Shown here: in pieces, positions 3,389 to 46,034 of the stretch
How the letters are laid out: each line of letters begins with the position of its first letter
How positions within the stretch are numbered: position 1 is the stretch's first letter
IMG/VR virus record: IMGVR_UViG_3300005828_000059
Source: a virus
Direction: 5' to 3' (one strand)
DNA length: 46,034 bases
Translations under genes and position numbers: made by a program
Notes under the pieces: generated by a model
The model's database searches: none
The model's input: the letters and a program-made list of their open reading frames with translations, nothing else
Told to the model about the DNA's origin: nothing

Positions 3389-3676
3389 ATGAAAGACCCT
3401 TTAGAAGTTTTAGCGAGCGCGCTCGTGCCGGGGGATCATATTCGCACCAGCTTGATCGAGCCGTACAACCACGCGATGGTCGTGAAGGTCGACAAAGATA
3501 ACGTGTACCTCGTTCGACCGTACATGACCTGCGCCGACTTCATCTACGGCGATGACCCACAAGTCATCGAGTATACGGGGCACGAGCACTACAGCATCGC
3601 GCGTAGCGTGCGCGTTGTGCTCGTTCGCCCTTCAACCGTCAAGGAACTCAAGGAACTCAAGGACGAGGATCTCTAA
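3389..3676 (+). CDS. Hypothetical protein (95 aa) with C-terminus ...VKELKELKDEDL
   Basis: SD sequence TAGGAGGTAG upstream of the ATG. The last 26 nt of coding sequence recur at 37567-37592. Confidence 0.65.
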   Translation: MKDPLEVLASALVPGDHIRTSLIEPYNHAMVVKVDKDNVYLVRPYMTCADFIYGDDPQVIEYTGHEHYSIARSVRVVLVRPSTVKELKELKDEDL

Positions 3677-4731: not shown

Positions 4732-5075
4732 GGCATAACTACGGGCCCCCTTGCTTCCCTCGCAGGCTGGTCTTCTGCGGCAAGCTGTATGGGGGGTCAA
4801 TGGGCGAACCAGTCTATCCGCTGATGACCCCTTACGAGATCTGGAGGGCCGCATGGCGGGTGTCCCAAGGGCTAGAAAGCGGCCACGAAAGCACAAGAAG
4901 AAACCCTTACTGCAGGGACTGTACTCGAGCGTACCAGGAGGAGCAGTTGCTGGCCGGCAACTGCAATCATCCTGAAGTACGTTTCAAGACCGACAAGGAT
5001 GGCTTTGTCACCGGGTATATCCCACGCCCCCCACGGGACAAGCGTAAGCGCGCAGGGGAGGTAGCGACGGCATGA
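4728..5075 (+). CDS. Hypothetical Cys-containing protein (115 aa) with a basic C-terminus
   Basis: ATGA overlap with the upstream ORF. SD sequence GAGAGGAGG upstream. Confidence 0.6.
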   Translation: MRHNYGPPCFPRRLVFCGKLYGGSMGEPVYPLMTPYEIWRAAWRVSQGLESGHESTRRNPYCRDCTRAYQEEQLLAGNCNHPEVRFKTDKDGFVTGYIPRPPRDKRKRAGEVATA

Positions 5076-17217: not shown

Positions 17218-20200
17218 TCAGCCTCTTTCCATCGCAACAACCCCATTCGGGATAGCAGCCAGGATTGTAAGCGGAAGCGGCTTTTGCTGTCGGATAACGA
17301 AGCTGCCCTGCGTACCCCAGCTACCGTCGATGACGACCTTCAGCAACCCGGTGACCACTCCGGTACTCGGAGTCAACGTCGGATCGGACTCTCGCAGATT
17401 GTTAGCGTCTGGCCCAATCATCACGGGCCCGGACGACTGCACAAGGACCGACACCGAAGTCACGATCTTCTGCTTGTCGCGTATTGTCTCGCCTTGCACC
17501 GTGTCGAGATCGAGGGTCTCGGCTTCTGCGGTGTATCCGAGCCCGCCGTGAACGAAAGCGTATGGCTTGCTGAGTGTGATCGTCCCGCTCGACACGACAG
17601 CTGTCTCATACTCGCCGTCACCGAGCACAGAGATCAAAGCGCTCTCCAAGTGCTCGAAGCCCGAAACCTGCTTGACAGCTTTCGCCCACGACGTTGTCGC
17701 AACTGCCTGGAACTCTACCGGTACGGTTATCTCGGCATACCCGCGCATCTGAGTGCTGCTCACGTAGGTGCCGAAAATGATCTTCGACTTCAGCCCGGCT
17801 ACCGGCAACAGCATGACGCCGTTATCGACATCGCCCGGTGTAAAGTATGGCGCACTCGCAGTAACGAGAAGCTCGTCTTCGAGAGTCCAACCTCCACCAA
17901 CCGAAGTAACCGTCATCGTAAGCGCACTTAGGTTAGTACCATCATACGTGCGCGAGGAGTCCACGAAAATTGCATCTCGTTGAACGTCAGTGAATTGGCG
18001 AGACGCAAACCGCTCGATGTACTTCTTGTACACTCCGTTAATGAGACGTCGCACAAGAATGTAAACGGCATCCTCGGTCCCTTCCGGCACCACGCATACG
18101 TCGAGAACTTCACCTTGAGTATCGTGTCGATGCCATCCCCAGATGTCGTGCTCTCGAAGATAAGTCAGCCCGAGCAAGGTTCCGTCCGAACGGACAGCCC
18201 AGATCACACTGTCGGGAACCTCGGCATAATCCATTCGCACAAGCGTGTAACCCTGGAACAAATGAGCGGCGTACACCGATAGATCTTTTCCGCTATATCC
18301 ATCGCTGGTGATCTCGTACTTGAGGTCGCGCACGAAACTGCCACGCGCTTGTGTGTAAACCACAGAATCCCCGACAACGACCGGAGCGATAGTCGAGATT
18401 CCGCTGGTCCCCTGTGAGAGCGGATTGATCTCACCAGGACGCAGAACGCCATCGGTCCCACCTTGGATCTGCCATTGCCCGACCGACGTGAACACGATCA
18501 GTGTTCCGACGTCAGTGTAGTAGCGGATCTCGTTGTTCTTCGTTCCTCGCTGACGCCAAGTGATCGCATCATCGGCCTGCGACGGATTGCTCGTCGAGAA
18601 ATTCCGAGGGTTGCTGGAGCGGCTTGCGAAGTTTACCGCAGGATCGTTGTACGTGTTCCCGAATAACAGTCGCTGTTGATAGTACCCCACCGCTGCGGGG
18701 TAGTCCCCCGCGCGGGAGAATAGCTCGCGCCTATCGGGCGGGGTGGAGTCAGTAGCGGGGACTTTGCCGTCATCGACGAAGCTCGCTCCGCGCGCGGTTC
18801 CGATATAGCCGAAGACACCGTTCACGGCTTTGTAGACGTTGTACTCCAGCGTGTTCTTCGCATCTGCCGCAGTCCACGTCAGCGTGATCGGAGATCCAGA
18901 GGTCGCCGTATTGATCGACTTCCCGCAAGCCAGCTGTACTTTGCCGGACGTGAAAGCACCTCCGCTAGTCTCTTCGTTGACGACGTCGAAAGTCACGCCA
19001 CTCAATCCGGTGATCGCGAACTCGCGCTCGCTGAACTCATCGGGACCGACGACTTCGGTAAACCACACTGAGTCCCCGAGAGCCCAGCCGGTTGTTGCAG
19101 CAACGGTTCCGCGCCATGTCGTGCCACTGACAACTGCGAGCCCGGTGAGCGTCTTTACCGCTTCCATACCGGCATAGCTTTCTTCGTAAGTCTCTTTTGC
19201 GACTGCGGTAACCTTGTAGTAGGTATCGGCCCCTGCCGTCCCGCCGGAGGTCGCCAAGGACGTCGGCTCCGCGATATCCGGCGAGATGTCGAACGGAACA
19301 ACAGACCACCAGTAGGTGCCGTATCTTCTGATCTCGTAAACCGGATAGTCCAAATCGACAACTATGATGACGTCGTCTTTTTGGACATACGAAAACCGAT
19401 AGACGTCGTCATGCGACCAGGGAGTCTCGCACTCGAAGATATTATCGATAAGAGCATGCCACCAAGTCGGGCTGATGTCCGGCTGGTGTCCGGTGTTCGA
19501 GTCCGCAAGCGAGACGTAAGTCACCCCACTGTAGGTGACAGAGTCTCCCCCGGCATAAGTAGTGCCCCCGTTGTAGGCGCCGAGTGGAGCGACATCGAGG
19601 CGAACCCCTGCCTGAATGACGCGCATGTAGTAGTCACCCAGTTCGATCACATACGTTTGCGCGTCATTGAAAACGAATTTGATCAGACGTGCATCTTTCG
19701 CCGAGTCCTTCACCTCGCAAACAAAAGATGCCCCTGGGCGATTCGCAATCCCGCCGCCCTTCTGCACGATGAAGTTGCGGCAGGTGCGAAGACCGGTCTG
19801 ATACTTAGTTTGATCGGTCCGAGCCCAGACCCCCGGATTCAATTCCCCGCCAGCGAACGATCGTTGAATTGCGCTTTGACTCATGCCCATCACCAGTGAG
19901 TTAAGTATCGGATCTATCCTCGTGCCTTGCTGCGGAGGCCCGAGCGATTGAAGCTTGAACGCAGCAAACCCGCCTCGTGCAACAATCGGAACGTATCCGA
20001 CGAATGCGAGGCGGCCGGACTCCGGTGCAACAACACGAGAGACACCGGGCGTATACCCAGTTAACGTAATGCGACCTGATGCAGGTCGTATCGTGTTGCC
20101 TTGGTCGATCAGCGGCGTATAGCCGGTTAGCACTAGGTGGCCGGTTGACGGGAACACCGTCTTGCCAACCGTTGGCGCGTAGCCGGTAAAAGCTAGATGC

Positions 20201-25790: not shown

Positions 25791-25830
25791 TCAGCGGTTG
25801 TCAGCGGTTGTCAGCGGTTGTCAGCGGTTG
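25791..25830. repeat. Perfect tandem repeat: 4 copies of the 10-nt unit TCAGCGGTTG (CAACCGCTGA on the coding strand)
   Basis: Read directly from the sequence. Copy 4 contains the stop codon of ORF 25821-26153. Copy 1 abuts the SD of the next gene. Confidence 0.95.
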
Positions 25831-26727: not shown

Positions 26728-27759
26728 TCAGGTAACCCGAGCTTCCGTTTCGAGCAAGGCGTCGACAGTGCGAACCGGGATCCCGCGAAATGTGTTGACG
26801 AAACCGCCGTAGTTGCCGTCCTTGTCGTACACGACGTTGTTGACCACGGTAACGCCACCGGTGTTGAGGTTCTTGCCGATCGACTGGATGTCCAGCATCT
26901 GCGCGACAGTGCGGTTCACGTAGAACACCGGACGCCCCATCTTCAGGTTCTCGACGCGATGCATTGCCTTGATCATCAGCTTCGCCAGATCGGCTGCAGA
27001 CGTCTCGGAAACGAGCGAACTTACATCGATGTTGCAGATGCGAACGCCATAGCGCCAGTCCTTGCTTACAAGTCCGCACTTCCACTGCCAGTGATCCTGG
27101 AAAGCGCGCAAACGTCCGTTGGTCGCGCCGATACCAGTCGCAGTCTCGATCGTCTGCAGGCCGAGATCCTCATGCATGATGCCGGCTTTGCTGCCCTTCG
27201 GATACGTGCAGAAGAACGTTTCCGGGCCCCACACGAGAAGCCAGATAGAGCAATTGTCGGTACTCGATCCACCGGCATCGATGATGTTGCGCGCGTTGTT
27301 CGCACTGAGCGACGAATACCGGATCGAAAGCCCGAGAAACTCCTCGGGATCGGTCGTCGTGTTGCCGTAGAACAGCGTGCTCGCCATCTCCTGATTGAGG
27401 GCCTCGATCGTCGCGCGAGCCTCGGAGAGCCGGAACTGCGGCGAGTTGCCGTTTAGCTCCGCGATGTCTTTGTCGACTTCGCTCCAGCCCTCCAGCATGC
27501 CGCAGGACTCGTCGACTTGCGCGGTCGTGCTCTTGCTCGGCGTCACGCCTTGGTTGAGCAAACGCCACGCAACCGTTGGGTATCCGGTACGCATCGTGAC
27601 ACGATGACCCGTGGGCAGATTGCCTTCAGCCCAGTGAGCGTCGGTGAGAACCTCATTGGTCTGGGACAGCATCTCCACGATCGCGGCGATATTGCCATCG
27701 GGATCCATACGCTTCGCGACATCGCTCAGCGTGACTACGTTTGTTGCGAGAGTTGCCAT
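26728..27759 (-). CDS. Major capsid protein (343 aa)
   Basis: Lies between the scaffold and cement genes. The N-terminal pattern ...DPDGNIAAIVEMLSQTNEVLTDAHWAEGNLPTGHRVTMRTGYPTVAWRLLNQGV... is typical of podovirus HK97-fold coat proteins. SD sequence AGGAG upstream. Confidence 0.75.
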   Translation of the reverse strand: MATLATNVVTLSDVAKRMDPDGNIAAIVEMLSQTNEVLTDAHWAEGNLPTGHRVTMRTGYPTVAWRLLNQGVTPSKSTTAQVDESCGMLEGWSEVDKDIAELNGNSPQFRLSEARATIEALNQEMASTLFYGNTTTDPEEFLGLSIRYSSLSANNARNIIDAGGSSTDNCSIWLLVWGPETFFCTYPKGSKAGIMHEDLGLQTIETATGIGATNGRLRAFQDHWQWKCGLVSKDWRYGVRICNIDVSSLVSETSAADLAKLMIKAMHRVENLKMGRPVFYVNRTVAQMLDIQSIGKNLNTGGVTVVNNVVYDKDGNYGGFVNTFRGIPVRTVDALLETEARVT

Positions 27760-27788
27760 GATGCTTTGCTCCTATGCTTGAGTTGGGG

Positions 27789-28451
27789 TCAGGCCGCTTT
27801 GTTTCCGTAGATACGGTCAGCGAGATCGCGCGGCTGCTTGCTGCCACCGCCTTCTCCGCCAGTCTCGAACTTATCGTCACGCATCGCCTTTCCGACCTTG
27901 GCGAACACGCGCACGAGTTCAGGATGATTTCCGTACCCACTTTCGTTCAGTGCCTTGCGAAAATCCGCTGTTGCGAAACGCTCGAGCGCGCGGTTGACGT
28001 CGGAGATCGTAGCGTCGTAATTGCTGCCGCCGATATCCTTGTCTGCCTTAATCGCGTCCGGCCACTGCTTCGTGACAAGCTCATTCCACTGCTGTTGACG
28101 CTCAGTGACAAGCTTCGTCACCTCGGCATCGACAGTCCCAAGCAACTTCTTCGCGCTCTCCGAGTTCAGCCCGAGTTGGGTTGCGTACTCTTTGACGCGC
28201 GCAGTAGCTTCTGCATCGAGCGGAGAACCGTCTCGCAACGTCAGCGTGTACTCTCCAGTGTCTTTCGACTGCGCGTCCGACTGCTGGTTTTGCTGTTGCT
28301 GATCGCTGCCCTGCTGGTTCTGCTGCGATTGTTGATCGCCCTGCGATTGCTGGTTCTGCTTATCTTGCTGCTGGTTCTGCTTATCTTGCTGCTGGTCTTG
28401 CTGCTGGTCTTGCTGCTGCTGGTTCTGCTGCTGCTGGTTATCGTCAGACAT
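27789..28451 (-). CDS. Scaffolding protein candidate (220 aa) with an N-terminal tract of about 55 aa rich in Gln, Asn and Asp
   Basis: Lies between the portal-proximal ORF and the capsid gene. The C-terminal part is helical and charged. The ATG at 28451 has GGAAGAGG upstream. Confidence 0.55.
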   Translation of the reverse strand: MSDDNQQQQNQQQQDQQQDQQQDKQNQQQDKQNQQSQGDQQSQQNQQGSDQQQQNQQSDAQSKDTGEYTLTLRDGSPLDAEATARVKEYATQLGLNSESAKKLLGTVDAEVTKLVTERQQQWNELVTKQWPDAIKADKDIGGSNYDATISDVNRALERFATADFRKALNESGYGNHPELVRVFAKVGKAMRDDKFETGGEGGGSKQPRDLADRIYGNKAA

Positions 28452-28779
28452 CTTGATCCTCTTCCGGTTGAACGTTCTGTCGCAAGCTCTCCTCATACTC
28501 GGCCAGCATGAGCAACCATTGTTGAGGGCAAGCTTCGCGCAGGAAAACAGTCAGATTCTTCCCGATCTCCTGGATGCCGACGTTGTGCGCCATCACAAGC
28601 TCGCTACCAAGACCGACAGGGCTTTCGAGCCCGCAGATCTCGTAAACCATGCGATACACGAATCTGCGCCCGCGATCTGAACTCATGACATGCAAGACGT
28701 CGTTAACGCGCTGCTCTTGCTCCCGAGTCTCGCTCTGGCGCGCTCGCTTGAGTGCTCTCTCGTTAGCGGCGTTCGTCAT
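28444..28779 (-). CDS. Hypothetical head-module protein (111 aa), possibly Bbp19-like
   Basis: ATGA-type overlap with the portal stop. The family call is a weak recollection only. Confidence 0.4.
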   Translation of the reverse strand: MTNAANERALKRARQSETREQEQRVNDVLHVMSSDRGRRFVYRMVYEICGLESPVGLGSELVMAHNVGIQEIGKNLTVFLREACPQQWLLMLAEYEESLRQNVQPEEDQDV

Positions 28780-30521
28780 GCCGGCACACCTCCAGGCGGG
28801 GCCGCCGCACCCAACATTCGAGTGAGTGCGTTGTCACCTGCCATATCGGTCGAGGACAGGTTCTTGGCGGCCCCCGCCAGTTGCTCTGCACGCTGAACCG
28901 CAGCAGCCTGTTGCGCTGCCTGAGCGCGAGCTTGCCGGATCCCGACAACGGCATCATCAGAGCGCACGATCTGCGGTGGCACTCCGGTGATTAGCGCGTA
29001 CTCGTCGATCGTCTGATCGAGATCGACTTTATCGACGACGTCAGGCGTCACACCGAGGTTGGCTTGTGCTGCGGCAACGTTACCGACAAAGCCCATGAAC
29101 CGATCGATCGCGCCGATGCCGACTAGCTTCTGAGCTTGCGCCATAAGGCTGATGTACTCGACGCGCAAGGCTCTCCCCTGGATCTCTTTTGGCGGCGGCG
29201 GAAGCTGACCGCGAGATCCAAGCTTTGTGAAAGCATCATCGATCGCTGGATCGAGTAGCTCGTCGTTGAGACGCTCAAGCACTGGCCCCAGCATCAGCAG
29301 CTTTTCTTCGTGGCGCTCGTCGATCTCGCGCGCGGTGACTCGCGTGCGCTGGGCAGAATCGAGCGCGACCATCATCTGAAACAAGTCGACGTAGAAAGCG
29401 CGCCGAAGACGCGACCGGATCTGCTCTGCTTTCGCCTCCGCGTGCTCGACGTCAAACCGAATCTCATGCAGCGGCTTAAGGCCGGCTTGCCCTTCGCGGA
29501 TATCCGCGAAAGTAACATCCCCTGGGATCAAACTGACTCGATGATTGCGCAACGACGTTGGCGCGCTCATCGGCGGATTGATCATCTTCTCGATCGCTTG
29601 CGCGATTCGCTTCTCGTAGACCTGGAGCCCTTTGTTCGACCCAAGCGCGTCAGCACCGGGACCGGTGCCGTAGATGTCCTCCCCGAGCAAGTCCCACCTG
29701 GGGCACAGCACGGGAAAGTGATCATATCCACTCTCGCGCAAGAACTTATCCGCGATATCGTTTCGGTAGCCGTCTGCGCCGATCTCGTAATACAGGGAAG
29801 CGAACTTCTTGTACTTCGCGTCGAAGAGGGTTTCGTCCCACTTGTCGTTCGGCATGATCAGGTGGACAACATCGATCTTCGTCTCGAAGTTACCGTTGTC
29901 CCAGAGATCCTTGACGCGCTGTGAGAACGGAGCCCAACGCTTCTCAGGAGAGGCGTTCGGGTCTCCGAACTTGTGAACAAGCTGGCGCACGGTATACGAG
30001 ATATCGCGCGACCAGATGTTCGCCAGCATGCGATCGTCATTGCCGATGTAGAAACGACCGATGGGCTGCGAGTAGACGCGAAGAGTGTCTTTCTGGTCGT
30101 CGTCGAGGAAGAGGGACGCTGTCCCGAAGACACCGAGATCCCCGTAGGTCGTGGAGATCCCGTTGTAGAAGTTCGAGCGCAAGAACAGCCAGTGGATGCG
30201 CTCGGTCACATGATGCAGCCAGCGCTTGACTGGCGCGAACTCGTTGAGATCTGGGTCAGGAGTCGTGAGCTTGAACCACGGTCGCGCGGGCGAGGTGATC
30301 CCTGACATCATGCCAGCCTGTAGAGTGCGGCTGGAAAATCGACCCTCTTCGTCGAGGATCTTCGCGTTGCGCTTGTCGCCCTTATTGACGTTCGCGCTAT
30401 TCAGCCGGATACGGCGCGGCTGGAAGTAGTCGGCACACTCCTGCCAGAGCGGTTCCCAGGAGGAGCGCTCATCGACGAGCCCCGATACTATGGCTTCAAC
30501 CCGCTTTCGTCTGCTCTCCAA
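28776..30521 (-). CDS. Portal (head-to-tail connector) protein (581 aa)
   Basis: The size, the position after TerL/GNAT and the N-terminal pattern ...WEPLWQECADYFQPRR...ILDEEGRFSSRTLQAGMMSGITSPARPWFKL are typical of T7 gp8-like connectors. The start is TTG, with an in-frame stop 2 codons upstream. Confidence 0.75.
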   Translation of the reverse strand: MESRRKRVEAIVSGLVDERSSWEPLWQECADYFQPRRIRLNSANVNKGDKRNAKILDEEGRFSSRTLQAGMMSGITSPARPWFKLTTPDPDLNEFAPVKRWLHHVTERIHWLFLRSNFYNGISTTYGDLGVFGTASLFLDDDQKDTLRVYSQPIGRFYIGNDDRMLANIWSRDISYTVRQLVHKFGDPNASPEKRWAPFSQRVKDLWDNGNFETKIDVVHLIMPNDKWDETLFDAKYKKFASLYYEIGADGYRNDIADKFLRESGYDHFPVLCPRWDLLGEDIYGTGPGADALGSNKGLQVYEKRIAQAIEKMINPPMSAPTSLRNHRVSLIPGDVTFADIREGQAGLKPLHEIRFDVEHAEAKAEQIRSRLRRAFYVDLFQMMVALDSAQRTRVTAREIDERHEEKLLMLGPVLERLNDELLDPAIDDAFTKLGSRGQLPPPPKEIQGRALRVEYISLMAQAQKLVGIGAIDRFMGFVGNVAAAQANLGVTPDVVDKVDLDQTIDEYALITGVPPQIVRSDDAVVGIRQARAQAAQQAAAVQRAEQLAGAAKNLSSTDMAGDNALTRMLGAAAPPGGVPA

Positions 30522-30550
30522 CGCGCATCATCCGCGCCCCCGTAGGTGGA

Positions 30551-31060
30551 TCAGCCGGGCTGCCCAGCCCGGTCCAGCCTGCGCCCCCAGACCGATTCGA
30601 TCTCCTCGTAGCCCAGCCTTCTCAGGAGGGGCCCGAAGTCATGGGCGCGCTTAACGTGGTTATATACCACAGAAGCCCCAGCCGCCGCAAGGGACATGTC
30701 AGCAAATGCTATCAGACCTGCCCCGGTGCCCTGGTCGCGGTATTCGGGCAGCAGGAATAGGACGTCCTGTTTAGCGTTCACGACGTCGTAGTGCAGGTGC
30801 CTGGAAAGCACGAAAACGGCATACCCGACCAGCCAGTTCTCACCATCTACGTCGAGCGCGCGGGCTGTATAGATCTTCAGCATGCCGGCAGCCTGCGCTC
30901 GGTAGTAGCTGTCCCAGTCAACTGCAAGCTCGATGTCCGGGTAATGCGCAATCTCTCTCCAGTGCTGATAGAGCAGCGGCCTGATCTCTGCGGCGAAAGC
31001 CTCGTCGAGCAGTTCCTCACTGAACACGGTGGGGTGCGTCATATCGTTCATATCGCTCAT
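30551..31060 (-). CDS. GNAT-family N-acetyltransferase (169 aa)
   Basis: VLFLLPEYRDQGTGAGLI matches the acetyl-CoA binding motif (R/Q-x-x-G-x-G/A). ATGA overlap with the TerL stop. Confidence 0.65.
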   Translation of the reverse strand: MSDMNDMTHPTVFSEELLDEAFAAEIRPLLYQHWREIAHYPDIELAVDWDSYYRAQAAGMLKIYTARALDVDGENWLVGYAVFVLSRHLHYDVVNAKQDVLFLLPEYRDQGTGAGLIAFADMSLAAAGASVVYNHVKRAHDFGPLLRRLGYEEIESVWGRRLDRAGQPG

Positions 31061-32526
31061 GTCCTGCTCTCCTCATAGGGGTTCCATTCCGCTAACGCTC
31101 GGTCCTGCACAACTGGAATCATCGACGTTCCCGAGATCGCGCGAGGCCGTGGTACAACAGGTGCCGCGTGTGTCAGAATGAATGCGTCCCAAATATCGGG
31201 CGACACCTGCAGGACCGCTTTGATCTCGTCTTTGTCCTGCACGATCAGTTTGTCACGCTTGAGTGTGTAAGTCGCTGCAACTGCTTCTCTCGCCAGTTGG
31301 GGATCGTTCGGGAGAGCACCCCCGTTCTTCACCCACTCGGCCGCGTTAAAGTGCATCTCTGCGCGCCGGTTGTAGTAGCGAGGATCGAATGCTTTGCCGG
31401 CGAATGACACTGGGATAAGAGACATCCCAAGGTCGAGGGCCGCATCGATCGCGCCTGCAGCGTATCCCCCACCATCATCGATGAAGATCGCATCGGGCTG
31501 GAACTTCTCATTCGCGATCGCCAGCCGAGCGGCGATGTCTTGAGTCCTCGCGTTACGCATGATCACTGGCTTGAAAGCCTGCACGCCCTGGCGCGGAAAC
31601 ATGACGGTGCGATCGTCCCCCATGCGTGCGATGTCGACCCCGATCACGCGCGCTGCGAATGCGTACTGGTCTTTCGGGATCACACGCCGCATCGCTATCG
31701 AGACGTCGTCGGGCCCGAGGAGTGCGTTGATCGAAGCGGGCGGAAATTTGCCCAGCACGTTGACCATGACCCAGGGGTTATCGCGCCCCCAGGATTCGAT
31801 TTGATCTCGTGCCCACTGGATGCTCACACGTGAAGACCTGTTCGGATCATCAGGGTCGCCCGTGATCTCGACCATCGTCCACAGATGCCGCTCGACTGTT
31901 GCCGCTCGATAGAGCGGGCCCTCGAGCGTAGTGGGATTCCCCGCTTGCACGAGATGACACTCCACCCCCGACGCGAGAGCGGCTTCAGCTGCAGCCATCA
32001 CCGCGCTTGGAATACCGCCGCTCTCGTCGAGGATGAACAGCATGTAGTCGGCGTGCTTGCCGGCCAGCGTGTCGGCTTGCGCTTCTGGAGATGCAGATCT
32101 CGACCACGCGCGAGCGACCATGTAGTGAGTCTCTGGATCGTCGACCGCGAAGATGCGAGTTGCTGTCCATTTGAAAGCTTTGTCTAAACACTTGTTGACG
32201 GACTGCTTCTGCCACTTCGCCATCTCAGTCCAGAGGCCGTCGGACAAGTTATCGGCGGTAATCGAGGTAGCAACGATCTTCGGGTGAGGACGAGTGAGGA
32301 GAAAATTCCAACAGATCCAGGCTAGCACGCAGGTCTTGCCTGGGCCCTTACACGCTTTCATCGCGAGTCGCGGGTTATAGCGGAACTTATGCAAAGCCTG
32401 CGCTTGCCAGGGGTCTGGTGAAGCCCCGAACACTTCACGCACGAAGCGCTCGGGGCTCTCGCGCCACTCGGATATCTTGCGCGCGGTAACCGCAGCGCTG
32501 TATCCGAGAGCGCTGGCGATCGACAT
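31057..32526 (-). CDS. terL: Terminase large subunit (489 aa)
   Basis: The Walker A-like motif is CKGPGKTCV and the Walker B motif is MLFILDESGG. The nuclease-domain acidic motifs are IGVDIARMGDD and IFIDDGGGY. Confidence 0.85.
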   Translation of the reverse strand: MSIASALGYSAAVTARKISEWRESPERFVREVFGASPDPWQAQALHKFRYNPRLAMKACKGPGKTCVLAWICWNFLLTRPHPKIVATSITADNLSDGLWTEMAKWQKQSVNKCLDKAFKWTATRIFAVDDPETHYMVARAWSRSASPEAQADTLAGKHADYMLFILDESGGIPSAVMAAAEAALASGVECHLVQAGNPTTLEGPLYRAATVERHLWTMVEITGDPDDPNRSSRVSIQWARDQIESWGRDNPWVMVNVLGKFPPASINALLGPDDVSIAMRRVIPKDQYAFAARVIGVDIARMGDDRTVMFPRQGVQAFKPVIMRNARTQDIAARLAIANEKFQPDAIFIDDGGGYAAGAIDAALDLGMSLIPVSFAGKAFDPRYYNRRAEMHFNAAEWVKNGGALPNDPQLAREAVAATYTLKRDKLIVQDKDEIKAVLQVSPDIWDAFILTHAAPVVPRPRAISGTSMIPVVQDRALAEWNPYEESRT

Positions 32527-32828
32527 CAGTTCGGGCGGCCGAGCGGGGCGATTGCACTTGCGACCTGAATGCGAGACGCGTTCTCGGCACGCATCTGAGC
32601 GAGATGCCGCGCCACTAAGCTCTCGCCGGCTTGCTTCAGCCAGTACGCAGCTTTGTAGGAATCGACGATACCCGCCATCTGAACGTCGATCGTGTCCTGG
32701 TTGTCGCCCTCGAACGAGAGCATGACGAATGCCGCCTTGCCACTCTCAACTGCATCAGCTAACAGACGCAGCTTCTGCGCGAGCTTGCGCTCTTCGCGAT
32801 TGACTCTGTACTCGGCTGTCTCTTCCAC
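32526..32828 (-). CDS. Hypothetical protein (100 aa) upstream of terL
   Basis: GTG at 32828 with GGAGG 4 nt upstream. TGATG overlap with the terL start. The track start at 32864 lacks an SD. Confidence 0.45.
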   Translation of the reverse strand: MEETAEYRVNREERKLAQKLRLLADAVESGKAAFVMLSFEGDNQDTIDVQMAGIVDSYKAAYWLKQAGESLVARHLAQMRAENASRIQVASAIAPLGRPN

Positions 32829-34689: not shown

Positions 34690-34970
34690 TCTTGTTACCG
34701 CCGCGCGTACCCCCCTTTAGGGGGGTAAAATCGGGAAACAATCGGTAACAATCTAACATGTTGATTCCAAACGCTTTTCACTGCCCTCCGATTGTTACCC
34801 GTTGACAACAGATTTTGATCAGCGGGAAACAATCGCCTTTTGCGTGTTTTCAAGCACTTAGCTCAGGATCTTGTTTCCCGGTTTTTTCGGGAAACAATCG
34901 GTAACAATCGGTAACAATCGAAAAATGTACATACATACAGTGCTTTTCTGTATTTTCGTACAGTACGCTC
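34690..34970. promoter_or_regulatory. Putative replication origin: an iteron cluster, a G6/C6 hairpin and an AT-rich segment
   Basis: The motif (G)G(G/T)AAACAATCG occurs in direct orientation at 34733-34744, 34745-34753, 34824-34835, 34889-34900, 34901-34910 and 34911-34920. It occurs inverted at 34789-34798, 34871-34880 and, as a variant, 34691-34700. The hairpin TACCCCCC-TTTA-GGGGGGTA lies at 34708-34727. An AT-rich stretch spans 34921-34970. Confidence 0.55.
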
Positions 34971-34991: not shown

Positions 34992-37037
34992 TTACAGTAC
35001 CGACACCCGATATCCACGCATCTTCGTGCCCTGCATTGCCCGCTCGATCAAACCTTCCTCCACCATCGACTTGCAAATCGACATGATCATATTGGTCCTG
35101 ATCCCGGTGACCAGCTGAATGTCGCGTATGACTGCCGCTTCCTTGAGATCACATACCTCCGCGATCGCTTGCAGCACCTTCGCGCGGCGCGCGTGCATCT
35201 CCGCCGTAACCGCAGCTTGATCCTTCGCCGCTACCGCAGGGCGCTTATAGTCGAATGGAGTAAGCACACTGCTCTCGCCGATTACCACGCGCTCGAAGTA
35301 AGCCTCGCTGCCGATCCTGGACACGTTGGTCTTGCTGAGCCTGAGCTTGAGGATATCGTCGTAGAGGGACTCCTCGATGTCTTGCTCGGCGCACCATTTC
35401 TCTTTCGCCTTCAGCGGGCATGGTGGGGTTAGAAACGCCGTCGCGCGCGTGTTGAAGACGATCGCGCTCGCTCCTCGTACATCACCTTGAGATAGCTCGT
35501 GGCCTTCGTCGAGCTTGGCAAGAGCGGCTTTGGAGATGTGCGCGCTCGCGATCACAGCAGCGCCGGTCTGCTTCGCCATGAATTCCATCATCTCGACGAA
35601 GCGGATCCCGGCTTGGTTGCTGCCTTCCTCGCCGCCCAGGAATCTCGCCAGAGGATCCAGCACAATCAGCCTGGGGCGCTCCACTGACTTCGCGCGCTCG
35701 ACGACCGTCCTGACCTGCTCCCAGATCGGCTCGGGGTTTCCGTCGATCTGCTTGAGCAACTGGACTGTACGGCCAACCATGGGTATGATCTGCAGTCGCC
35801 GGGTCAGCAAGGCGCGCTCTGCCTCCGAGAAGTGTCTAAGCTGATGAATGCCCCACAAGCGACGCTCGATCTCTTCGCCGTCATCCTCCGTCGCGAGTAT
35901 CAGCACTGACCCGGCATCTTCTGGCGGCAGGGTAGGAACCCCGCCCAGCATCTCACCCAGGCAGACCGAGATCCCCAGCTGCAGGAGGAACTGGGTTTTG
36001 CTGCCGCCGCCCGAGGCTGCCAGGACGCCTGTTTTAGCCCGCTCGAAGAACCCCCCTAGCACCCATTTCCGGGGGCTGGGGACGGTCGAGAAAGCCCGCT
36101 CGATGTCGACCCCCTGAAGCTGTTTAGGCGGGGGCTGGGCGGGCTGGGAAGGCTCGGCAGAGGGAAATGCCTCGATCAGGCTCTCCGCCTCGCTCCAGCC
36201 GCCCTGGCGGGCCAGGAAGCGTACGCTATCGAGCCCTACCTTGACCCCGCCCTCGGAGCGCCCGAAGGACTCCCACCTGCGCCGGTTCTCTCGCGGGTCG
36301 TAGTTGCCCTGGGTCGTCCTCTGGGACCAATCGTCGAAGATCTCCCAGGCACCCTCACCATAGGCGTCCTTGAGCGCCATTCCCACCTTGAGCCACGTGG
36401 TGTCGTCGGACGGGTCTACGTGCTCGAGCAGACGCTCTAGCTCGGAATGCGCTGGCGTGGGTTCCCGCCTCTCGACCGGCAGGGGTGCGACCTTGGCGCG
36501 AGCTTGCTCCTGGATCCACTCGACTAGCTCGGCTCCGTCAGCTAGCTGCGGATCCAGGTTGGCGTCGTCCCAGAGATCCCCGGTGATCGTGAAGTAGCGC
36601 TTGTCGCGGTAGACCTCGATCTTGCCGTCGAGCAGCGTCGTGCGCAGCGAGCGCTCCAGGCTGCTGCAGCGGACGATCAGATGGAGGCCCTGTCCGCTCG
36701 GGCTCACCTCGATGTAGGCACCTGCCGGCGCGCGCTTGAGGACTTCCTCGGCGAGCCTGTTCGGTTCTCCATCCTTGTCCAGACAGTGATCCAGGTCGAT
36801 GCCGGCTACGCCCTCTCCGAGGACGTAGCCGATACCGTCGAAATGTCCGGGAAGCCTCTGCAGCGTGTTGAACGCGCGCTCGAAGCTAGTCCAAGTCCCC
36901 GAGTCCGTCGTAGACGCATGTACACCATTCGCCTGGAACGGAACCTTGCGAGAGTGCATCACCCACCTCGCGTGGGCACGAAGAAAAGCAGGGATGCTCT
37001 GCGGCCGAAGGGAGGAAGGCATAGGGACAGAATCCAT
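34992..37037 (-). CDS. Bifunctional Prim-Pol primase / RecA-like (AAA_25-type) helicase with a C-terminal wHTH-like domain (681 aa)
   Basis: GIDLDHC and EVSPSGQGLHLIV are Prim-Pol motifs. WLKVGMALKD...DDWSQ is PriCT-2-like. The Walker A motif is ASGGGSKTQ and the Walker B motif is LIVLDPL. Confidence 0.8.
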   Translation of the reverse strand: MDSVPMPSSLRPQSIPAFLRAHARWVMHSRKVPFQANGVHASTTDSGTWTSFERAFNTLQRLPGHFDGIGYVLGEGVAGIDLDHCLDKDGEPNRLAEEVLKRAPAGAYIEVSPSGQGLHLIVRCSSLERSLRTTLLDGKIEVYRDKRYFTITGDLWDDANLDPQLADGAELVEWIQEQARAKVAPLPVERREPTPAHSELERLLEHVDPSDDTTWLKVGMALKDAYGEGAWEIFDDWSQRTTQGNYDPRENRRRWESFGRSEGGVKVGLDSVRFLARQGGWSEAESLIEAFPSAEPSQPAQPPPKQLQGVDIERAFSTVPSPRKWVLGGFFERAKTGVLAASGGGSKTQFLLQLGISVCLGEMLGGVPTLPPEDAGSVLILATEDDGEEIERRLWGIHQLRHFSEAERALLTRRLQIIPMVGRTVQLLKQIDGNPEPIWEQVRTVVERAKSVERPRLIVLDPLARFLGGEEGSNQAGIRFVEMMEFMAKQTGAAVIASAHISKAALAKLDEGHELSQGDVRGASAIVFNTRATAFLTPPCPLKAKEKWCAEQDIEESLYDDILKLRLSKTNVSRIGSEAYFERVVIGESSVLTPFDYKRPAVAAKDQAAVTAEMHARRAKVLQAIAEVCDLKEAAVIRDIQLVTGIRTNMIMSICKSMVEEGLIERAMQGTKMRGYRVSVL
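35731..35776. repeat. 46-nt exact direct repeat, copy A (inside the helicase coding region)
   Basis: TCGGGGTTTCCGTCGATCTGCTTGAGCAACTGGACTGTACGGCCAA is identical to 37467-37512. Confidence 0.95.
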
Positions 37038-37103
37038 TGCAAGGTTGGAGTTGTAAAGGTTCGGGGCTTACGCTGCTTTTCGCGCTGCTCTTCGCGCGGC
37101 TCT

Positions 37104-38009
37104 TCATGTCTGATCTCCGACGCCGCTCGTGCTCTTACACCATGTCGCGAACTCGCGGAAGCTCAGCCTGAATCTCGCTGCGTACTTGTGTCCGTCGCCT
37201 CCGTACATCTTCGCGATCTCACCTACGTCGACACCGCCTTCGGCAGAGTGCAGACTGAAATCAACCCCGAACTGCGAGAAAGAGAAGCTAGCTACGAAAG
37301 GATCTCCCGCTTTCATCAGATGCATGTAGTTGAGATGCACGACCGGGACGTCGTAGTTACCGATGCTGCCTCTCATCTGCGTTACACCGAGAAGCTGGTT
37401 GAGAAAATTGTCCCAGGCTTCCTGGCACCGCTCGTGGGTGCCCTTCGTATCGTTGCTCATTTCTCTTCGGGGTTTCCGTCGATCTGCTTGAGCAACTGGA
37501 CTGTACGGCCAATCTCCCTCTTCCTTCGGGCTTACGCGCTTGTTTTCCGCTCGACGTTCAAAGAGATCAAGGAACTCAAGGAACTCAAGGACAAGGAGCT
37601 TATCCATGATGGGCTTTCTTTCTTCCTCGTTGCGCACGAACTCGTCGTACGCGATCGCGCGCAGCTGGACCAAGACGTCGTCTATCTTGCTAGCCGGGAT
37701 GACATACGCTTCAACCCGAAGATCGACGTCTCCGGTTGTGGGATCGTTCGTGCCTTCGACCGAGAACAGCTTCGATTCGGCGCACGCAAAACCGAATTCG
37801 CGCATACGATGCGCGAGCAAGTCTGCATACGCTGTCTGATATTGCTCAAGCTGTTCGCGCGTTAGCCGCATACCATCCATCCCATATAGCTTAAGATCTT
37901 CGCGCGCGATTCGCTGGATTGCCCCCATGTAATATTTGCGCAAGCTCGCCTTGAGCTTATCCATTTCGCTCGGCGCTTTCGTCGCTTCGTTGCTCGTTTC
38001 GTTGCTCAT
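37104..38009 (-). CDS. Composite ORF (301 aa): an N-terminal helical part, a ~45-aa low-complexity linker built from repeated DNA patches, and a C-terminal DHHA1-like domain. The DHHA1-like part may be an independent 118-aa gene starting at ATG 37460.
   Basis: YGGDGHKYAARF resembles the DHHA1 motif GGGH..AAG. The start region at 37460 (ATGAGCAACGATACGA) nearly duplicates the start region at 38009 (ATGAGCAACGAAACGA). Confidence 0.5.
   Translation of the reverse strand: MSNETSNEATKAPSEMDKLKASLRKYYMGAIQRIAREDLKLYGMDGMRLTREQLEQYQTAYADLLAHRMREFGFACAESKLFSVEGTNDPTTGDVDLRVEAYVIPASKIDDVLVQLRAIAYDEFVRNEEERKPIMDKLLVLEFLEFLDLFERRAENKRVSPKEEGDWPYSPVAQADRRKPRREMSNDTKGTHERCQEAWDNFLNQLLGVTQMRGSIGNYDVPVVHLNYMHLMKAGDPFVASFSFSQFGVDFSLHSAEGGVDVGEIAKMYGGDGHKYAARFRLSFREFATWCKSTSGVGDQT
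37467..37512. repeat. 46-nt exact direct repeat, copy B (inside ORF 37104-38009, in a different reading frame)
   Basis: Identical to 35731-35776. It ends 7 nt upstream of the internal ATG at 37460. Confidence 0.95.
37567..37592. repeat. 26-nt exact copy of 3639-3664 (TCAAGGAACTCAAGGAACTCAAGGAC). It is itself an internal tandem of 11-nt units.
   Basis: Read directly from the sequence, in the same orientation. The match extends to 34 nt with 2 mismatches. Confidence 0.95.
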
Positions 38010-40036
38010 TTCCTAAACCTCCTGTCTTCCCAGCCTTCGGCCTTGATTGGAAATCCCGCAGCCCACGCGGGCACCTCGGTAAGGACGCTGATCAACCGCT
38101 GAAGCGGCCAGTCGTCTGCGTCCTTATGCACTTCGAGCACGACTTCGTCGTGCACATGGAGCACGATCGGAGCACCGAGTCTCGCCAGCCGCACGAGCCC
38201 GTGCGCGAGCAGATCTCGACAGATCGCTTGATCGGTATTCTCTAGAAAGGCACCTCCCCACATGGCGCGCCTTCCGCTGCGGATCTCCTCTTCGTCTTCG
38301 AGCGCGATCTCGTCCTCACTCTTGTCCGCGCTCTCCTCGGGATAGCGCTGATACGTTACTACACCGCCCCTGCCGTCGTTTTCGACTTCCGCGCCCCAGT
38401 AGTAGAGCGCACGACCGGACGGCAGCACGCACTTGAGAACTCCGCTCTTGGCGAGATACACGAACGTAACTCGGCAAGTAGAGAACAGCTTTCCCGGATG
38501 CAAGACCGCACGCACGGCAGCCCGCTGGAGCGAATACCATCCCTGTACGATGTTGGCGTTTTTCTCGCGGTAAGCGCCGACCGCGCGCTCGCCTTCTTCT
38601 AGCGTGATGTCGCTGTTCGGATCCAGCATGATCACGATCACAACGAACTTCTCGGGCCCCATCCCATAGCCGCACCCGAGCACGGCAGTCTTTCCGATGA
38701 AGCGCTGAGCATCTGTGATCTCGGTGACTGGCGTGTGGTAGATGCTGGAAGCCATGATCTTGTACGCGTCTTCGTCCCGCGCGAACGCGTCCAGCAACCA
38801 CTGCTCTCCGCACTGCCAAGCCGCATCTCGAGCTTCAATCGCGGCGAAGTCCGCAGCCTTGAACACGCAGCCAGACTTCGCGCGAATGATCCCGCGCAGC
38901 GAAGACGAGATCGCGTGTATCGGTTTCCCATATAGGAAGTCGATCGCGCTGTACGCTTGCGCGGTTGGCATGCTCTTAAGCGCAGAGAGCACGATCTCTT
39001 GGTCTTGCGGCTTGAAACCACGCTGTGGCCGGGGGAAGTTATGCGTCTGCAACGGGCGCTGTCCGCTCCACCTTTGCGTGCGAGCAGCGCCCGAGTGTTT
39101 GATCACGCCGCGAATTCGACCGTCCGCGCATACGCCGGCCGATACAGCCTCGAGCTTGCTTGTTGAGGACTTCGCGGCCAGCAAGCGCAGGTCCAGCATC
39201 TGTACCAGTTCGGGCGCTAGCTGAAATCGGTGCTTGACTAAGATCCGATTCAGGACTTCCTTGCGCAGGGTGTCGTAGCTGAACCCGCGAGCCTGCAGCC
39301 ACTTGAGGGTGCGCTCGTGCTGAGTCGCGACGTTAGTTATCGCGCCGCCGGATAGTCGAGCGGCCTCTTCGTTGAGTGGGGCAAGTCCGTGTATGACTGC
39401 GAGCAGCGCGGCAGCCGCTGCTTCGCGGTCGATCTCCATCCCACGCTCGTTGATGACGCGGTCGACATTGAACACCTCTTGCTCGGAGACGCTCAGATTA
39501 GGCAGCATCTTGAGCATTCCCACCTCGGCACGAGTATCATCGACGCAGTATCGATAGAACGCCTCGAAGTCTTCCGGGTAGTCGGCAGGCGTAGGCAGCC
39601 GCCCGCCGAGTTTCTTTTGCGGCTTGCAAAGCTTGTTGATGAGCGACCTGCCCTCTTTGCTCTTCGTGTGCGGCATGCGCGCAAGACGGGTCGCTTTATC
39701 GAGAGAACCCGGTAGCCCGTGCATGAGCGCGAGCGACATGATGCAACGGAACTGCAGGAGATCGCCTGGGAGCTTGAGCGTACGGTTCCACAGCCCCCAC
39801 TCGAACATCGAGTTCCACGCCCACACCCGCCCGCCGGCGCGGACGTGCTCGATTACCTCCGGGGGTGCCCCGTGCCCGACATGCAGACCGACCTCGATGC
39901 TGTCCGGGAACCAGTAGCTGCAGCACAAAACGCGCGTCGAGGGATCCTCTGCATACCGGTAGCCGCCTGCTTGCACGAGATCGACAGCCGACTGGCTCTC
40001 GAAGTCGATCACGCAGTCGCTATCGGAGAGGATCAT
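38006..40036 (-). CDS. polA: Family A DNA polymerase with a 3'-5' exonuclease domain (676 aa)
   Basis: The Exo I motif is VIDFES. Motif A is DFAAIEARDAAW, motif B is RFIGKTAVLGCGYGMG and motif C is LHVHDEVV. The ATG at 40036 forms an ATGA overlap with the upstream stop. The track start at 40123 is rejected. Confidence 0.85.
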   Translation of the reverse strand: MILSDSDCVIDFESQSAVDLVQAGGYRYAEDPSTRVLCCSYWFPDSIEVGLHVGHGAPPEVIEHVRAGGRVWAWNSMFEWGLWNRTLKLPGDLLQFRCIMSLALMHGLPGSLDKATRLARMPHTKSKEGRSLINKLCKPQKKLGGRLPTPADYPEDFEAFYRYCVDDTRAEVGMLKMLPNLSVSEQEVFNVDRVINERGMEIDREAAAAALLAVIHGLAPLNEEAARLSGGAITNVATQHERTLKWLQARGFSYDTLRKEVLNRILVKHRFQLAPELVQMLDLRLLAAKSSTSKLEAVSAGVCADGRIRGVIKHSGAARTQRWSGQRPLQTHNFPRPQRGFKPQDQEIVLSALKSMPTAQAYSAIDFLYGKPIHAISSSLRGIIRAKSGCVFKAADFAAIEARDAAWQCGEQWLLDAFARDEDAYKIMASSIYHTPVTEITDAQRFIGKTAVLGCGYGMGPEKFVVIVIMLDPNSDITLEEGERAVGAYREKNANIVQGWYSLQRAAVRAVLHPGKLFSTCRVTFVYLAKSGVLKCVLPSGRALYYWGAEVENDGRGGVVTYQRYPEESADKSEDEIALEDEEEIRSGRRAMWGGAFLENTDQAICRDLLAHGLVRLARLGAPIVLHVHDEVVLEVHKDADDWPLQRLISVLTEVPAWAAGFPIKAEGWEDRRFRK

Positions 40037-40455
40037 TTCGGAATTCCGGAGTTTCTGTTTCTCTCCAGTTCTGCCTTTGCCGCCATCGCTGCGGCAGTGG
40101 CGCGGTCGGGATATATGACCCACTTAATTGATTGGTTGATTAGAGTGCTCCATGAATAGCACGGCGCAGTGTGATCGGAGATCCAGAGGTCGCCGTATTG
40201 ATAAACTTCCCGCATCTTGTTGCTAGTCATCTGTAGTGACCATCCAGCGTGAAGCAGCGCATCCTCGACAGCGAATATGCCCTGCACAAGAATGCGTGGC
40301 GGCTGAAGACTGGTGATGCCAGGACCTATGTAGCAGCGCATCCTCGACAAGGCAAACAGCACTGCACAGTTATCAATATGACCCCACCATCCAAACCCTG
40401 CATCAAACTCCCATCTGCACAGTTTTGCGCAGGCTTCTAGCAGGTCAGCGTTCAT
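40033..40455 (-). CDS. Hypothetical protein (140 aa), partial paralog of 40445-40948. It contains internally frame-shifted duplicated segments, so it may be mosaic or decaying.
   Basis: SD sequence AGGAG 8 nt upstream. The C-terminal VEDALLHAGW...DRATAAAMAAKAELER parallels VEDALGEKGW...DRDTAAEMAAEMAARLEAR in the neighbouring gene. Confidence 0.45.
   Translation of the reverse strand: MNADLLEACAKLCRWEFDAGFGWWGHIDNCAVLFALSRMRCYIGPGITSLQPPRILVQGIFAVEDALLHAGWSLQMTSNKMREVYQYGDLWISDHTAPCYSWSTLINQSIKWVIYPDRATAAAMAAKAELERNRNSGIPK
40171..40214. repeat. 44-nt near-identical repeat, copy in hypothetical gene 40033-40455 (partner at 18884-18927)
   Basis: Same orientation as the partner but a different reading frame. 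It lies 135 nt upstream of the polA start codon. Confidence 0.9.
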
Positions 40456-40948
40456 CTTCGGATCTCCTAGCCTCCAGCCTTGCTGCCATCTCTGCTGCCA
40501 TCTCTGCGGCAGTGTCTCTATCTCTGTGGACCATTCGGATCGTTTCTTTGGTGTCGCGTTTGGGCTGGTAGAAACACCACGCTCCGTCAGTCCCCCATCC
40601 GTCAGGTATCCACTCTACCCGCCATCCCTTCTCCCCCAGCGCATCCTCGACGGCGATGCGGTTTCTCACGTCGATCAACTGCTGCATAGCTATCGCCACG
40701 TTTTCAAGCACGGGCGTCCAGTATGCGTGGCTCCGGTCTAACATTTCTCGGTTCAGCGACTCTGGGGTGTCGCTGCGGCTGATCACGTCGATCGCCGTCA
40801 GTTGCATTATGTGGTTTTCTTTAAGCATGGCGATGCGCTTCTGCGCCGCCTTCAGATCAGCCAGAGCCTTGTCCCTCTGGTCTAGAGCGTTCCTGGCGAT
40901 GGCCCGCAGGAGTTCGGCGGTCGTTTCTTTGTCGTATATCGGGTCCAC
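40445..40948 (-). CDS. Hypothetical protein (167 aa) with an N-terminal coiled coil
   Basis: GTG start with GGAGGAAGG upstream. Confidence 0.55.
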   Translation of the reverse strand: MDPIYDKETTAELLRAIARNALDQRDKALADLKAAQKRIAMLKENHIMQLTAIDVISRSDTPESLNREMLDRSHAYWTPVLENVAIAMQQLIDVRNRIAVEDALGEKGWRVEWIPDGWGTDGAWCFYQPKRDTKETIRMVHRDRDTAAEMAAEMAARLEARRSEDER

Positions 40949-44925: not shown

Positions 44926-45059
44926 ACCGAGCGCTAACAGCGTGGGTCTGCAATGTGCCCCTGTGCAGCAGACATCTGGCTCCGGGTTCGTCCGCAGGCG
45001 CGGAGTGGCCCCACCGGAGGAATAACAGGCCACCAGGGGGCACGCTGTTAGCGCTCGGT
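44926..45059 (+). ncRNA. 134-nt structured element in the rightward early leader, closed by a perfect 19-bp helix
   Basis: ACCGAGCGCTAACAGCGTG (44926-44944) is the exact reverse complement of 45041-45059. Internal hairpins lie at 44946-44973, 44980-45005 and 45005-45033. GTGCCCCT (44955-44962) can also pair with AGGGGCAC (45036-45043). Confidence 0.45.
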
Positions 45060-45893: not shown

Positions 45894-46034
45894 ATGCCTG
45901 TATCAAGGAATGGCGATCGCCACGAAGTGCGGGAAGTGCGGGCGAGCGAGGTGGACGCCTGCTACGGCAGCACCGTACACGCCTACGAAGGCAGCAAGGT
46001 GGACGCCTACTACGGCAGCAAGGTGGACGCCTAC
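45894..46034 (+). CDS. 5' part of the octapeptide-repeat protein ORF. It continues at base 1, and 45915-46034 duplicates 1-120.
   Basis: The ATG at 45894 has GAGGAGGA 4 nt upstream. In-frame alternative starts exist at ATG 45819/45822 and GTG 45771, with an in-frame stop at 45768-45770. Confidence 0.7.
   Translation, partial: MPVSRNGDRHEVREVRASEVDACYGSTVHAYEGSKVDAYYGSKVDAY
45915..46034. repeat. 120-bp terminal overlap identical to 1-120 (circular closure or direct terminal repeat)
   Basis: A base-by-base comparison of the two ends shows they are identical. Confidence 0.95.

Follow-up and report, generated by a model that had tools for sequence, protein, structure and literature searches.

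Short insertions that are templated by another part of the genome are produced by template switching at microhomology, an established mechanism known as MMBIR (break-induced replication that is mediated by microhomology), as described in PMC8421209. A-family polymerases of organelles, which are relatives of phage enzymes, can also perform microhomology-mediated end joining, as described in PMC6451138. Insertions of the MMBIR type, or of the fork stalling and template switching (FoSTeS) type, and the related "filler DNA" have mostly been described in eukaryotic, cancer and yeast genomes. Here we analyze a viral DNA of 46,034 nt, IMG/VR record IMGVR_UViG_3300005828_000059 (the whole of this stretch is called the window below), in which one 46-nt sequence occurs twice without a mismatch. 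One copy is in a primase-helicase gene, and the other is in an open reading frame (ORF) of 301 codons, ORF301. The likeness to the described insertions lies in the short tract, the intact and identical donor in the same genome, the non-homologous recipient site, the lack of terminal inverted repeats, target-site duplication or recombinase, the clustering of several patches in the same recipient ORFs, and the microhomology-like junctions of a sister patch of 48 nt. Unlike most of these cases, the insertion is fixed in a natural phage lineage and lies in coding sequence, and the candidate enzymes are the phage PolA, the Prim-Pol or a host polymerase.

There are two further groups of systems that are close to this locus. 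Coupled phage genes can be fused when a stop/start overlap is lost, and the likeness here is a putative ancestral ATGA overlap whose two frames are joined by an insert of 3n+1 nt. The usual routes to such a loss are point mutation, single-base frameshift and deletion, whereas in this case a 46-nt copy of a gene makes the join and the origin of the linker is traceable. The second group is the phage DHH/DHHA1 phosphoesterases (PHROG 4771). Residues 197-288 of ORF301 match the DHHA1 half of these proteins, but the N-terminal DHH catalytic domain is lacking or replaced. We suggest that the copy in ORF301 is likely to be an ectopic templated insertion from the helicase gene, which fused two genes and which is now a scar without function.

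Results

A perfect 46-nt repeat read in two frames

The 46-mer (TCGGGGTTTCCGTCGATCTGCTTGAGCAACTGGACTGTACGGCCAA) has exactly two occurrences on the plus strand, at 35731-35776 (copy 1) and at 37467-37512 (copy 2). They are in direct orientation with a spacing of 1,736 bp, and the sequence identity breaks off abruptly at both ends. No further copy with up to three mismatches is present in the window. Both copies lie inside minus-strand ORFs, where they are read in different frames: copy 1 is translated as GRTVQLLKQIDGNP(E) in the primase-helicase gene, and copy 2 as WPYSPVAQADRRKPR, residues 166-181 of ORF301. When the window is compared with itself by BLAST, this pair is the strongest dispersed repeat (46/46 identical, E = 3e-18). 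No pair with E < 0.01 arose in 20 composition-preserving shuffles, and the 46-mer pair was seen in none of 100 dinucleotide-preserving shuffles, with none expected by chance. An earlier note, made from the letters of this DNA alone, had described a perfect direct repeat at these positions, with copies that are translated in different frames and that could not recur by chance. The coordinates and the ORF translations agree with this description, and the shuffles and the E value bear out the last point. Because 0 of 46 positions differ, the divergence between the copies is bounded only to less than about 6.5% per site at 95% confidence (exp(-46d) = 0.05), and "recent" is therefore a merely relative term. 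The hallmarks of a transposon are missing at the 46-mer, which has no inverted repeat or internal symmetry and no recombinase among its neighboring genes.

The repeat recurs in independent assemblies

The ORF301 protein is found unchanged on five contigs from Joint Genome Institute (JGI) and European Nucleotide Archive (ENA) samples, and copy 2 is found in all five assemblies. One JGI contig (L001, JGI 3300005824) is 99.96% identical to the window, and an ENA contig assembled with SPAdes (L002) is 99.5% identical, with 70 substitutions relative to the window. Both carry the two copies without mismatch. Two short contigs (L003 and L004) have copy 2 only and end before copy 1. In favor of an artefact of assembly or sequencing, the window is a metagenomic contig and L004 ends 29 nt short of copy 1. 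However, both copies recur with their own unique flanks in JGI and ENA SPAdes assemblies of different samples, one of these assemblies is a distinguishable strain, 46 nt is shorter than a typical read, and both ORFs stay open through the copies. An artefact is thus extremely improbable, and the repeat is real and reproducible. The earlier note had held that a chimeric assembly must be excluded first. Judged from assemblies rather than reads, a chimera is effectively excluded, because the samples are independent, two assembly pipelines were used and one strain is distinguishable.

No assembly differs from any other in the replication module, from 35.26 to 40.2 kb. This invariance of 35260-40200 suggests a recent sweep or module exchange, or else strong constraint. 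Substitutions between strains are concentrated in the region 27253-32742 and are densest at 30.6-32.8 kb. In addition, the final 32 nt of L003 (its positions 4953-4984, corresponding to about 36553-36584 of the window) are wholly unlike the window, starting right after the conserved Prim-Pol motif DKRYFTI. The contig may be chimeric at this end, or a mosaic boundary with another phage may lie here.

The helicase copy is native

The primase-helicase gene (34992-37037, minus strand) encodes a protein of 681 aa with Prim-Pol, PriCT-2 and AAA_25 domains, as assigned by Pfam and PHROG matches. Copy 1 (35731-35776) encodes residues ~421-436 (GRTVQLLKQIDGNPE) in the AAA_25 core, inside a Pfam AAA_25 match that is unbroken over residues 302-504. 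The earlier note had placed it in the helicase core, and the domain match agrees. The segment is aligned without gaps with the two closest AAA_25 homologues, and the three have the pattern VG....L..Q in common (VGR-TVQLLKQID here, VGE-DNRLTIQVD in P0009 and VGQ-DARLTVQQK in P0037). It is just upstream of the motif LIVLDPLA, which reads as a Walker B motif. Codon bias points the same way. At third codon positions the tract has a GC content (GC3) of 11/14 when read as helicase and of 5/15 when read as ORF301, and the phage genes have a GC3 of 0.65-0.77. Since the AAA_25 match is unbroken, the homologues align without gaps and GC3 fits the helicase frame, these comparisons indicate that the helicase copy is native and the ORF301 copy is derived. 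The closest public homologues of the primase-helicase are ~28-36% identical, and a search of IMG/VR with the helicase returned one distant locus. With relatives too distant to compare, the polarity was settled by domain alignment and codon bias, and this answers the question, raised in advance, of which copy is ancestral: the helicase gene is the donor.

ORF301 joins an orphan module to a DHHA1 domain

ORF301 (37104-38009, minus strand) follows polA (38006-40123) and is a single gene in the annotations of the JGI and ENA records. Of its 301 residues, the N-terminal part is an orphan, the C-terminal part is a DHHA1-like domain, and a patchwork linker connects the two. The match to PHROG 4771 (DHH phosphoesterase) covers residues 200-289 only. 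A search of 1.84 billion representative proteins with ORF301 gave 242 matches. Those listed are nearly all DHH/DHHA1 proteins or DHHA1 fragments, many of them of ~280-300 aa, which are aligned to the C-terminal third of ORF301, and none of the matches listed reaches its first 118 residues. A family hidden Markov model (HMM), built from 81 full-length DHH-family members, matches residues 197-288 (nodes 178-275 of 290) with 85 bits. DHH motifs I-IV, including DHH and DRDLW, are absent from ORF301 in the family alignment, and there is no Pfam or PHROG match to its N-terminal half. In the C-terminal domain, GGDGH is aligned with the family GGGGH, and most invariant DHHA1 positions are kept, including GG.GH...F. 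As the catalytic DHH domain at the N-terminus, with its motifs, is missing or replaced, ORF301 is, as far as these alignments define the family, not a functional DHH family member. The earlier label of a DHHA1-like ORF holds for the C-terminal third, where PHROG 4771 and the family HMM match, and fails for the rest. The candidate reading of ORF301 as a full-length degenerate DHH protein, to which a pairwise BLAST alignment extending into residues 104-196 had given rise, was dropped, since the 81-member profile gives it no N-terminal support.

Copy 2 is upstream of the point where the family homology begins. In the AlphaFold2 model, residues 200-295 have a confidently predicted fold, with a predicted local distance difference test score (pLDDT) of at least 90 in the DHHA1 domain, whereas the N-terminal half is modeled with too little certainty to support a fold search. 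The patch residues 166-181 have a pLDDT of 34-42 and are predicted to be disordered. The base composition also sets this part apart. The GC fractions at the three codon positions are 0.60/0.37/0.67 in codons 1-136, which is typical of coding sequence, and ~0.55/0.42/0.70 in the C-terminal part. In codons 137-183 GC3 is only 0.45, with normal coding bias on both flanks. By composition, the linker is foreign, and it appears to join an orphan N-terminal module to a DHHA1-only remnant.

Removal of copy 2 restores a phage gene junction

Deleting exactly the 46 nt of copy 2 in silico gives the sequence ...GAA GAG GGA GAA GAG AAA TGA, in which TGA overlaps the ATG of a downstream frame. ORF301 is thereby split into a putative former gene A (37513-38009, minus strand, 168 aa after the removal, ending ...SPKEEGEEK*) and a putative former gene B (37104-37460, minus strand, 118 aa, beginning MSNDTKG..., with its ATG at 37460-37458). 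Gene A has no homologue among the 1.84 billion representative proteins and no PHROG match, and it gives no score with the family HMM (-2.3 bits). Gene B alone scores 88.5 bits (E = 6e-29). Gene B would be the remnant of a DHH-family phosphoesterase that retained only the DHHA1 domain.

The restored junction is of a kind that this phage uses elsewhere. ATGA overlaps occur at 6 of the 21 tabulated junctions, and two of these read GAAATGA, including that between polA and ORF301. A Shine-Dalgarno-like (SD-like) motif, GGGAGA (37513-37518, minus strand), lies 6 nt upstream of the gene B ATG without the insert and 52 nt upstream with it. Such motifs are found at -16 to -8 in 17 of 22 genes, compared with 13% of internal codons taken as background. 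When 46 nt are deleted at random positions in phage genes, an overlap of the ATGA type is created in 1.3% of cases, and the joint chance of a restored overlap and an SD motif is ~0.2%. Because removal of the exact 46 nt restores the standard gene junction of the phage, we infer that A and B were once separate genes; the length of 3n+1 means that their fusion is in frame. A sequence over the gene B start (GAAATGAGCAACGATACGA, 37445-37463, minus strand) is identical at 18 of 19 positions to the junction of the polA stop and the ORF301 start at 37994-38012. This match has a genome-wide E of 0.72, which is at chance level and suggestive only, and the gene B start was dropped as a candidate for a third patch on this ground.

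Sister patches elsewhere in the genome

In the self-comparison of the window no more than three dispersed repeats are significant, and all three are direct. Besides the 46-mer there is a repeat of 48 nt (45/48 identical, E = 3.5e-14), read on the minus strand at 18880-18927 in a tail gene (CGKSINTATSGSPITL) and at 40167-40214 in ORF140 (MREVYQYGDLWISDHT), and one of 31 nt (30/31 identical, E = 8e-8) at 3639-3669 (plus strand, gene 3389-3676) and 37567-37597 (ORF301, minus strand). The recipient ORFs are small accessory ORFs on either side of polA.

The 48-nt copies are likewise read in different frames. The tail copy encodes residues 767-782 of a 1335-aa tail protein and falls within a PHROG 376 match (residues 448-1328), and the tail gene is the probable donor. 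An FN3-like nature of the donor segment was considered and rejected, as there is no Pfam FN3 match and only the match to the PHROG 376 tail protein. ORF140 is in part a paralogue of ORF167, with AVEDAL..GW common to both. Between two conserved anchors ORF140 is 33 nt longer than ORF167, and their alignment has a 32-nt gap inside the 48-nt patch. The patch ends, TGCGGGA and ACTG, resemble TGGGGGA and ACTG of ORF167, as microhomology-mediated switching predicts, though the two paralogues have diverged from each other. Position 40203 is polymorphic, with C in L002 and L003 (46/48 to the tail copy) and A in the window (45/48). The patch thus differs between strains, so that its identity is not maintained, and it looks like an older, decaying example of patch insertion.

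The 31-nt repeat is read as LLVLEFLEFLD in ORF301 and as VKELKELKDED at the C-terminal end of the product of gene 3389-3676. It is built of 9-nt units (TCAAGGAAC), and the donor may be either locus. In ORF301 it is 54 nt from the 46-mer. Within ORF140 there is also a 21-nt patch (40329-40349, minus strand, read as SRMRCY), which is 20/21 identical to 40250-40270 (VEDALL) and lies 79 nt upstream of it. The two are read in different frames. The VEDAL reading is common to ORF167 (VEDALG), whose counterpart lies at 40632-40652.

The search for RNA, recognition and recombination signals

Among phage antisense RNA regulators are lambda OOP, P22 sar and P1/P7 c4. Copy 2 could similarly be a functional nucleic-acid element, either a plus-strand antisense RNA, pairing with the helicase mRNA over 46 nt and perhaps with the ORF301 start region over 19 nt, or a DNA or RNA recognition site that is used twice. 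By geometry, a plus-strand transcript of copy 2 would be perfectly complementary to the helicase mRNA, and this extended complementarity to an essential phage mRNA is the likeness to the known regulators. Three matches with other loci of the genome lie close together in 37445-37597, and one terminator-like plus-strand hairpin is present at 37595-37617. However, the known regulators lie opposite their target or use short complementary boxes, rather than a 46-nt copy inside another ORF, and neither promoter, terminator enrichment, structure nor Rfam family was detected here. In the promoter scan, nothing sigma-70-like was detected on the plus strand upstream of copy 2 (37467), and terminator-like sites number 3 versus 3.0 expected. 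Folding does not surpass that of shuffled sequence, either around copy 2 (z-scores of +1.2 and -0.6) or for the isolated 46-mer (+1.2 and +0.4), and Rfam yields no match at the gathering threshold. Further points against such an element are the lack of internal symmetry in the 46-mer, the divergence of the analogous 48-nt patch between strains, and the 31-nt partner, which would be sense and not antisense to its own gene. We regard a nucleic-acid function of copy 2 as highly doubtful. An antisense transcript and a recognition element were two of the four explanations offered in advance, and neither gains support from these results.

The scan returned two sigma-70-like sites, against 0.8 expected. 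A single one is on the plus strand, at 35761-35789 (TGGACT, 17-nt spacer, TATGAT), antisense to the helicase gene. Its -35 hexamer is inside copy 1, and copy 2 has no matching -10 hexamer.

It has also been proposed that the repeat is prone to deletion. Perfect direct repeats of 46 bp with a spacing of 1.7 kb suffice as substrates for recombination, whether homologous or by single-strand annealing. Among the phage's gene products are a PD-(D/E)XK nuclease, an Enc34-type single-stranded-DNA-binding protein and a RuvC-like resolvase. The copies might act as functional sites, either as an att-like pair or as a switch for programmed deletion, and excise the Prim-Pol half and gene B. The predicted product argues otherwise. 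It would join ORF301 codons 1-181 to out-of-frame helicase sequence and would lose Prim-Pol, PriCT-2 and the N-terminal part of the AAA_25 ATPase with the invariant K347. There is no integrase or recombinase in or beside 35731-37512, and none of the assemblies seen includes a contig with the deletion. Functional recombination sites are therefore very improbable. Because the product is out of frame and lacks Prim-Pol, PriCT-2 and K347, and because no recombinase is nearby, recombination between the copies looks like a liability and not a switch. The proposal stands as a passive consequence of the repeat and falls as a function.

Some other candidates were set aside. A diversity-generating retroelement with template and variable repeats was rejected because there are zero mismatches between the copies and hence no adenine-position differences; no reverse transcriptase domain is present in the Pfam records of the tabulated genes of L001 (about 27.1-46.0 kb plus 0.2-2.3 kb of the window). 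CRISPR-like readings, readings as a miniature inverted-repeat transposable element and translational bypass were dropped in view of only two copies, no inverted repeats and a continuous ORF.

A broader proposal is that the middle of ORF301 (37445-37597) is a composite regulatory locus, put together from copies of parts of the phage's genes, or alternatively that the replisome is unusually patch-prone. We consider this quite improbable. If the first part were true, one antisense RNA would pair with the helicase mRNA (46 nt) and with the polA-stop/ORF301-start junction (18/19 nt), and the expression of replication genes would be tied to a single RNA. If the second part were true, the PolA/Prim-Pol replisome would have a high intrinsic rate of ectopic insertion of patches of ~20-50 nt, and the phage would be a natural model for template switching, gene fusion and gene birth by patchwork.

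Other features of the window

A tandem array of 24-nt repeats occupies 1-1047 (~44 units, with a periodicity of 8 aa), and its units recur at 45979-46034. L001 is a circular permutation of the window, and the tandem array differs between assemblies. Since array units are found at both ends and L001 is circularly permuted, the contig seems to represent a whole genome, either circular or terminally redundant. Iteron-like 10-nt repeats (AACAATCGGT) form two clusters directly downstream of the primase-helicase gene, at 34723-34756 and 34879-34922, with an exact match of 23 nt between 34731 and 34887. JGI annotates only a 40-aa ORF there, and the repeats could be an origin or an operator. An imperfect tandem array rich in CTG/CTGGTT is located at 28269-28445, with a 12-nt indel at 28383 in strain L002. 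There are also four tandem copies of TCAGCGGTTG at 25791-25830, and a perfect 19-nt inverted repeat at 44926-44944 and 45041-45059, with arms 96 nt apart.

Discussion

We propose that replication or the repair of a break copied 46 nt of the helicase gene, without a change of orientation, to a position 1.7 kb distant. Template switching by a polymerase, or "filler DNA" at a repaired break, would be the likely route, with the donor gene left intact. The template-switch mechanism is our inference. The insert most likely landed in the 4-nt stop/start overlap (GAAATGA) of the coupled genes A and B downstream of polA. As 46 is 3n+1, the one-base offset between the frames of A and B would have been cancelled, giving the fused ORF of 301 aa, in which 15 foreign codons would now form an unstructured linker. 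The insertion may have been tolerated because the in-frame fusion keeps the DHHA1 module translated, even though the SD motif was displaced by 46 nt. The repeat would at the same time be a passive substrate for a lethal deletion of 1,736 bp. Of the explanations that the earlier note had put forward without choosing among them, a recent templated patch insertion is thus the one that we favor, with the direction from helicase to ORF301 and with patches of the same kind in the genome.

Several points weigh against this interpretation. An insert of exactly 46 nt leaves no more than 2 nt (TC) of microhomology at the junctions. The searched databases contain no relative of intermediate divergence, and the pre-insertion allele was never observed. 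Searches for this allele and for the 46-mer core in metagenome_contigs and viral_contigs came back empty, but they carry no information, since the known JGI contig was not returned there either. At the nucleotide level, none of 50,697 phage records matches the 5.3-kb region, and as a protein relative of ORF301 the identical protein alone was found. The invariance of 35.26-40.2 kb leaves no variation with which selection on the 46-mer could be tested, and the promoter scan covered the sigma-70 type only. With the patch, 65 aa separate a degenerate "LDLF" from the point where DHHA1 starts, versus 62 aa in the family, which weakly favors a replacement over a pure insertion. The ends of the 46-mer could also have been there before as microhomology. 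The net insert would then be shorter, and the ATGA junction would be a coincidence of ~0.2%.

The last two points lead to another account, in which the ORF that received the patch from the helicase gene had been single before. The ends of the 46-mer would be prior microhomology, or an equivalent stretch would have been replaced, so that the net change was a multiple of three and no fusion took place. The sister 48-nt patch fits this account, as it appears to have microhomology at both ends and a net gain of only 32-33 nt. So does the spacing just given, in which the weak match to motif IV reads "LDLFERR", and so does a pairwise BLAST alignment to P0094 that runs through the patch (residues 104-288). 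However, the gene A part gives a negative score on the family HMM and homology starts only at residue 197, DHH motifs I-IV are absent, and the exact deletion yields both the canonical GAAATGA overlap and the SD motif, at a joint chance of ~0.2%. We therefore find this account unlikely and favor an insertion that fused genes A and B.

The event belongs to the known class of templated insertions of the MMBIR type, and the current understanding of that class is not overturned. What the locus offers is a clean and traceable natural case in which a short templated insertion remodels phage genes, and in which a single genome shows the donor, the recipient, the direction and the likely fusion. The same process is seen at two ages, in the exact 46-mer and in the older, decaying 48-nt patch. 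The repeat also predicts a specific deletion of 1,736 bp, which is a possible source of defective genomes. The 46-mer is most likely a mutational scar rather than a signal. Thus, perfect intragenomic repeats that are read in different frames can be scars of mutation and not signals, and this is useful for the triage of metagenomic phage contigs. For the phage itself, the accessory ORFs that flank polA appear to be tolerant of such patches.

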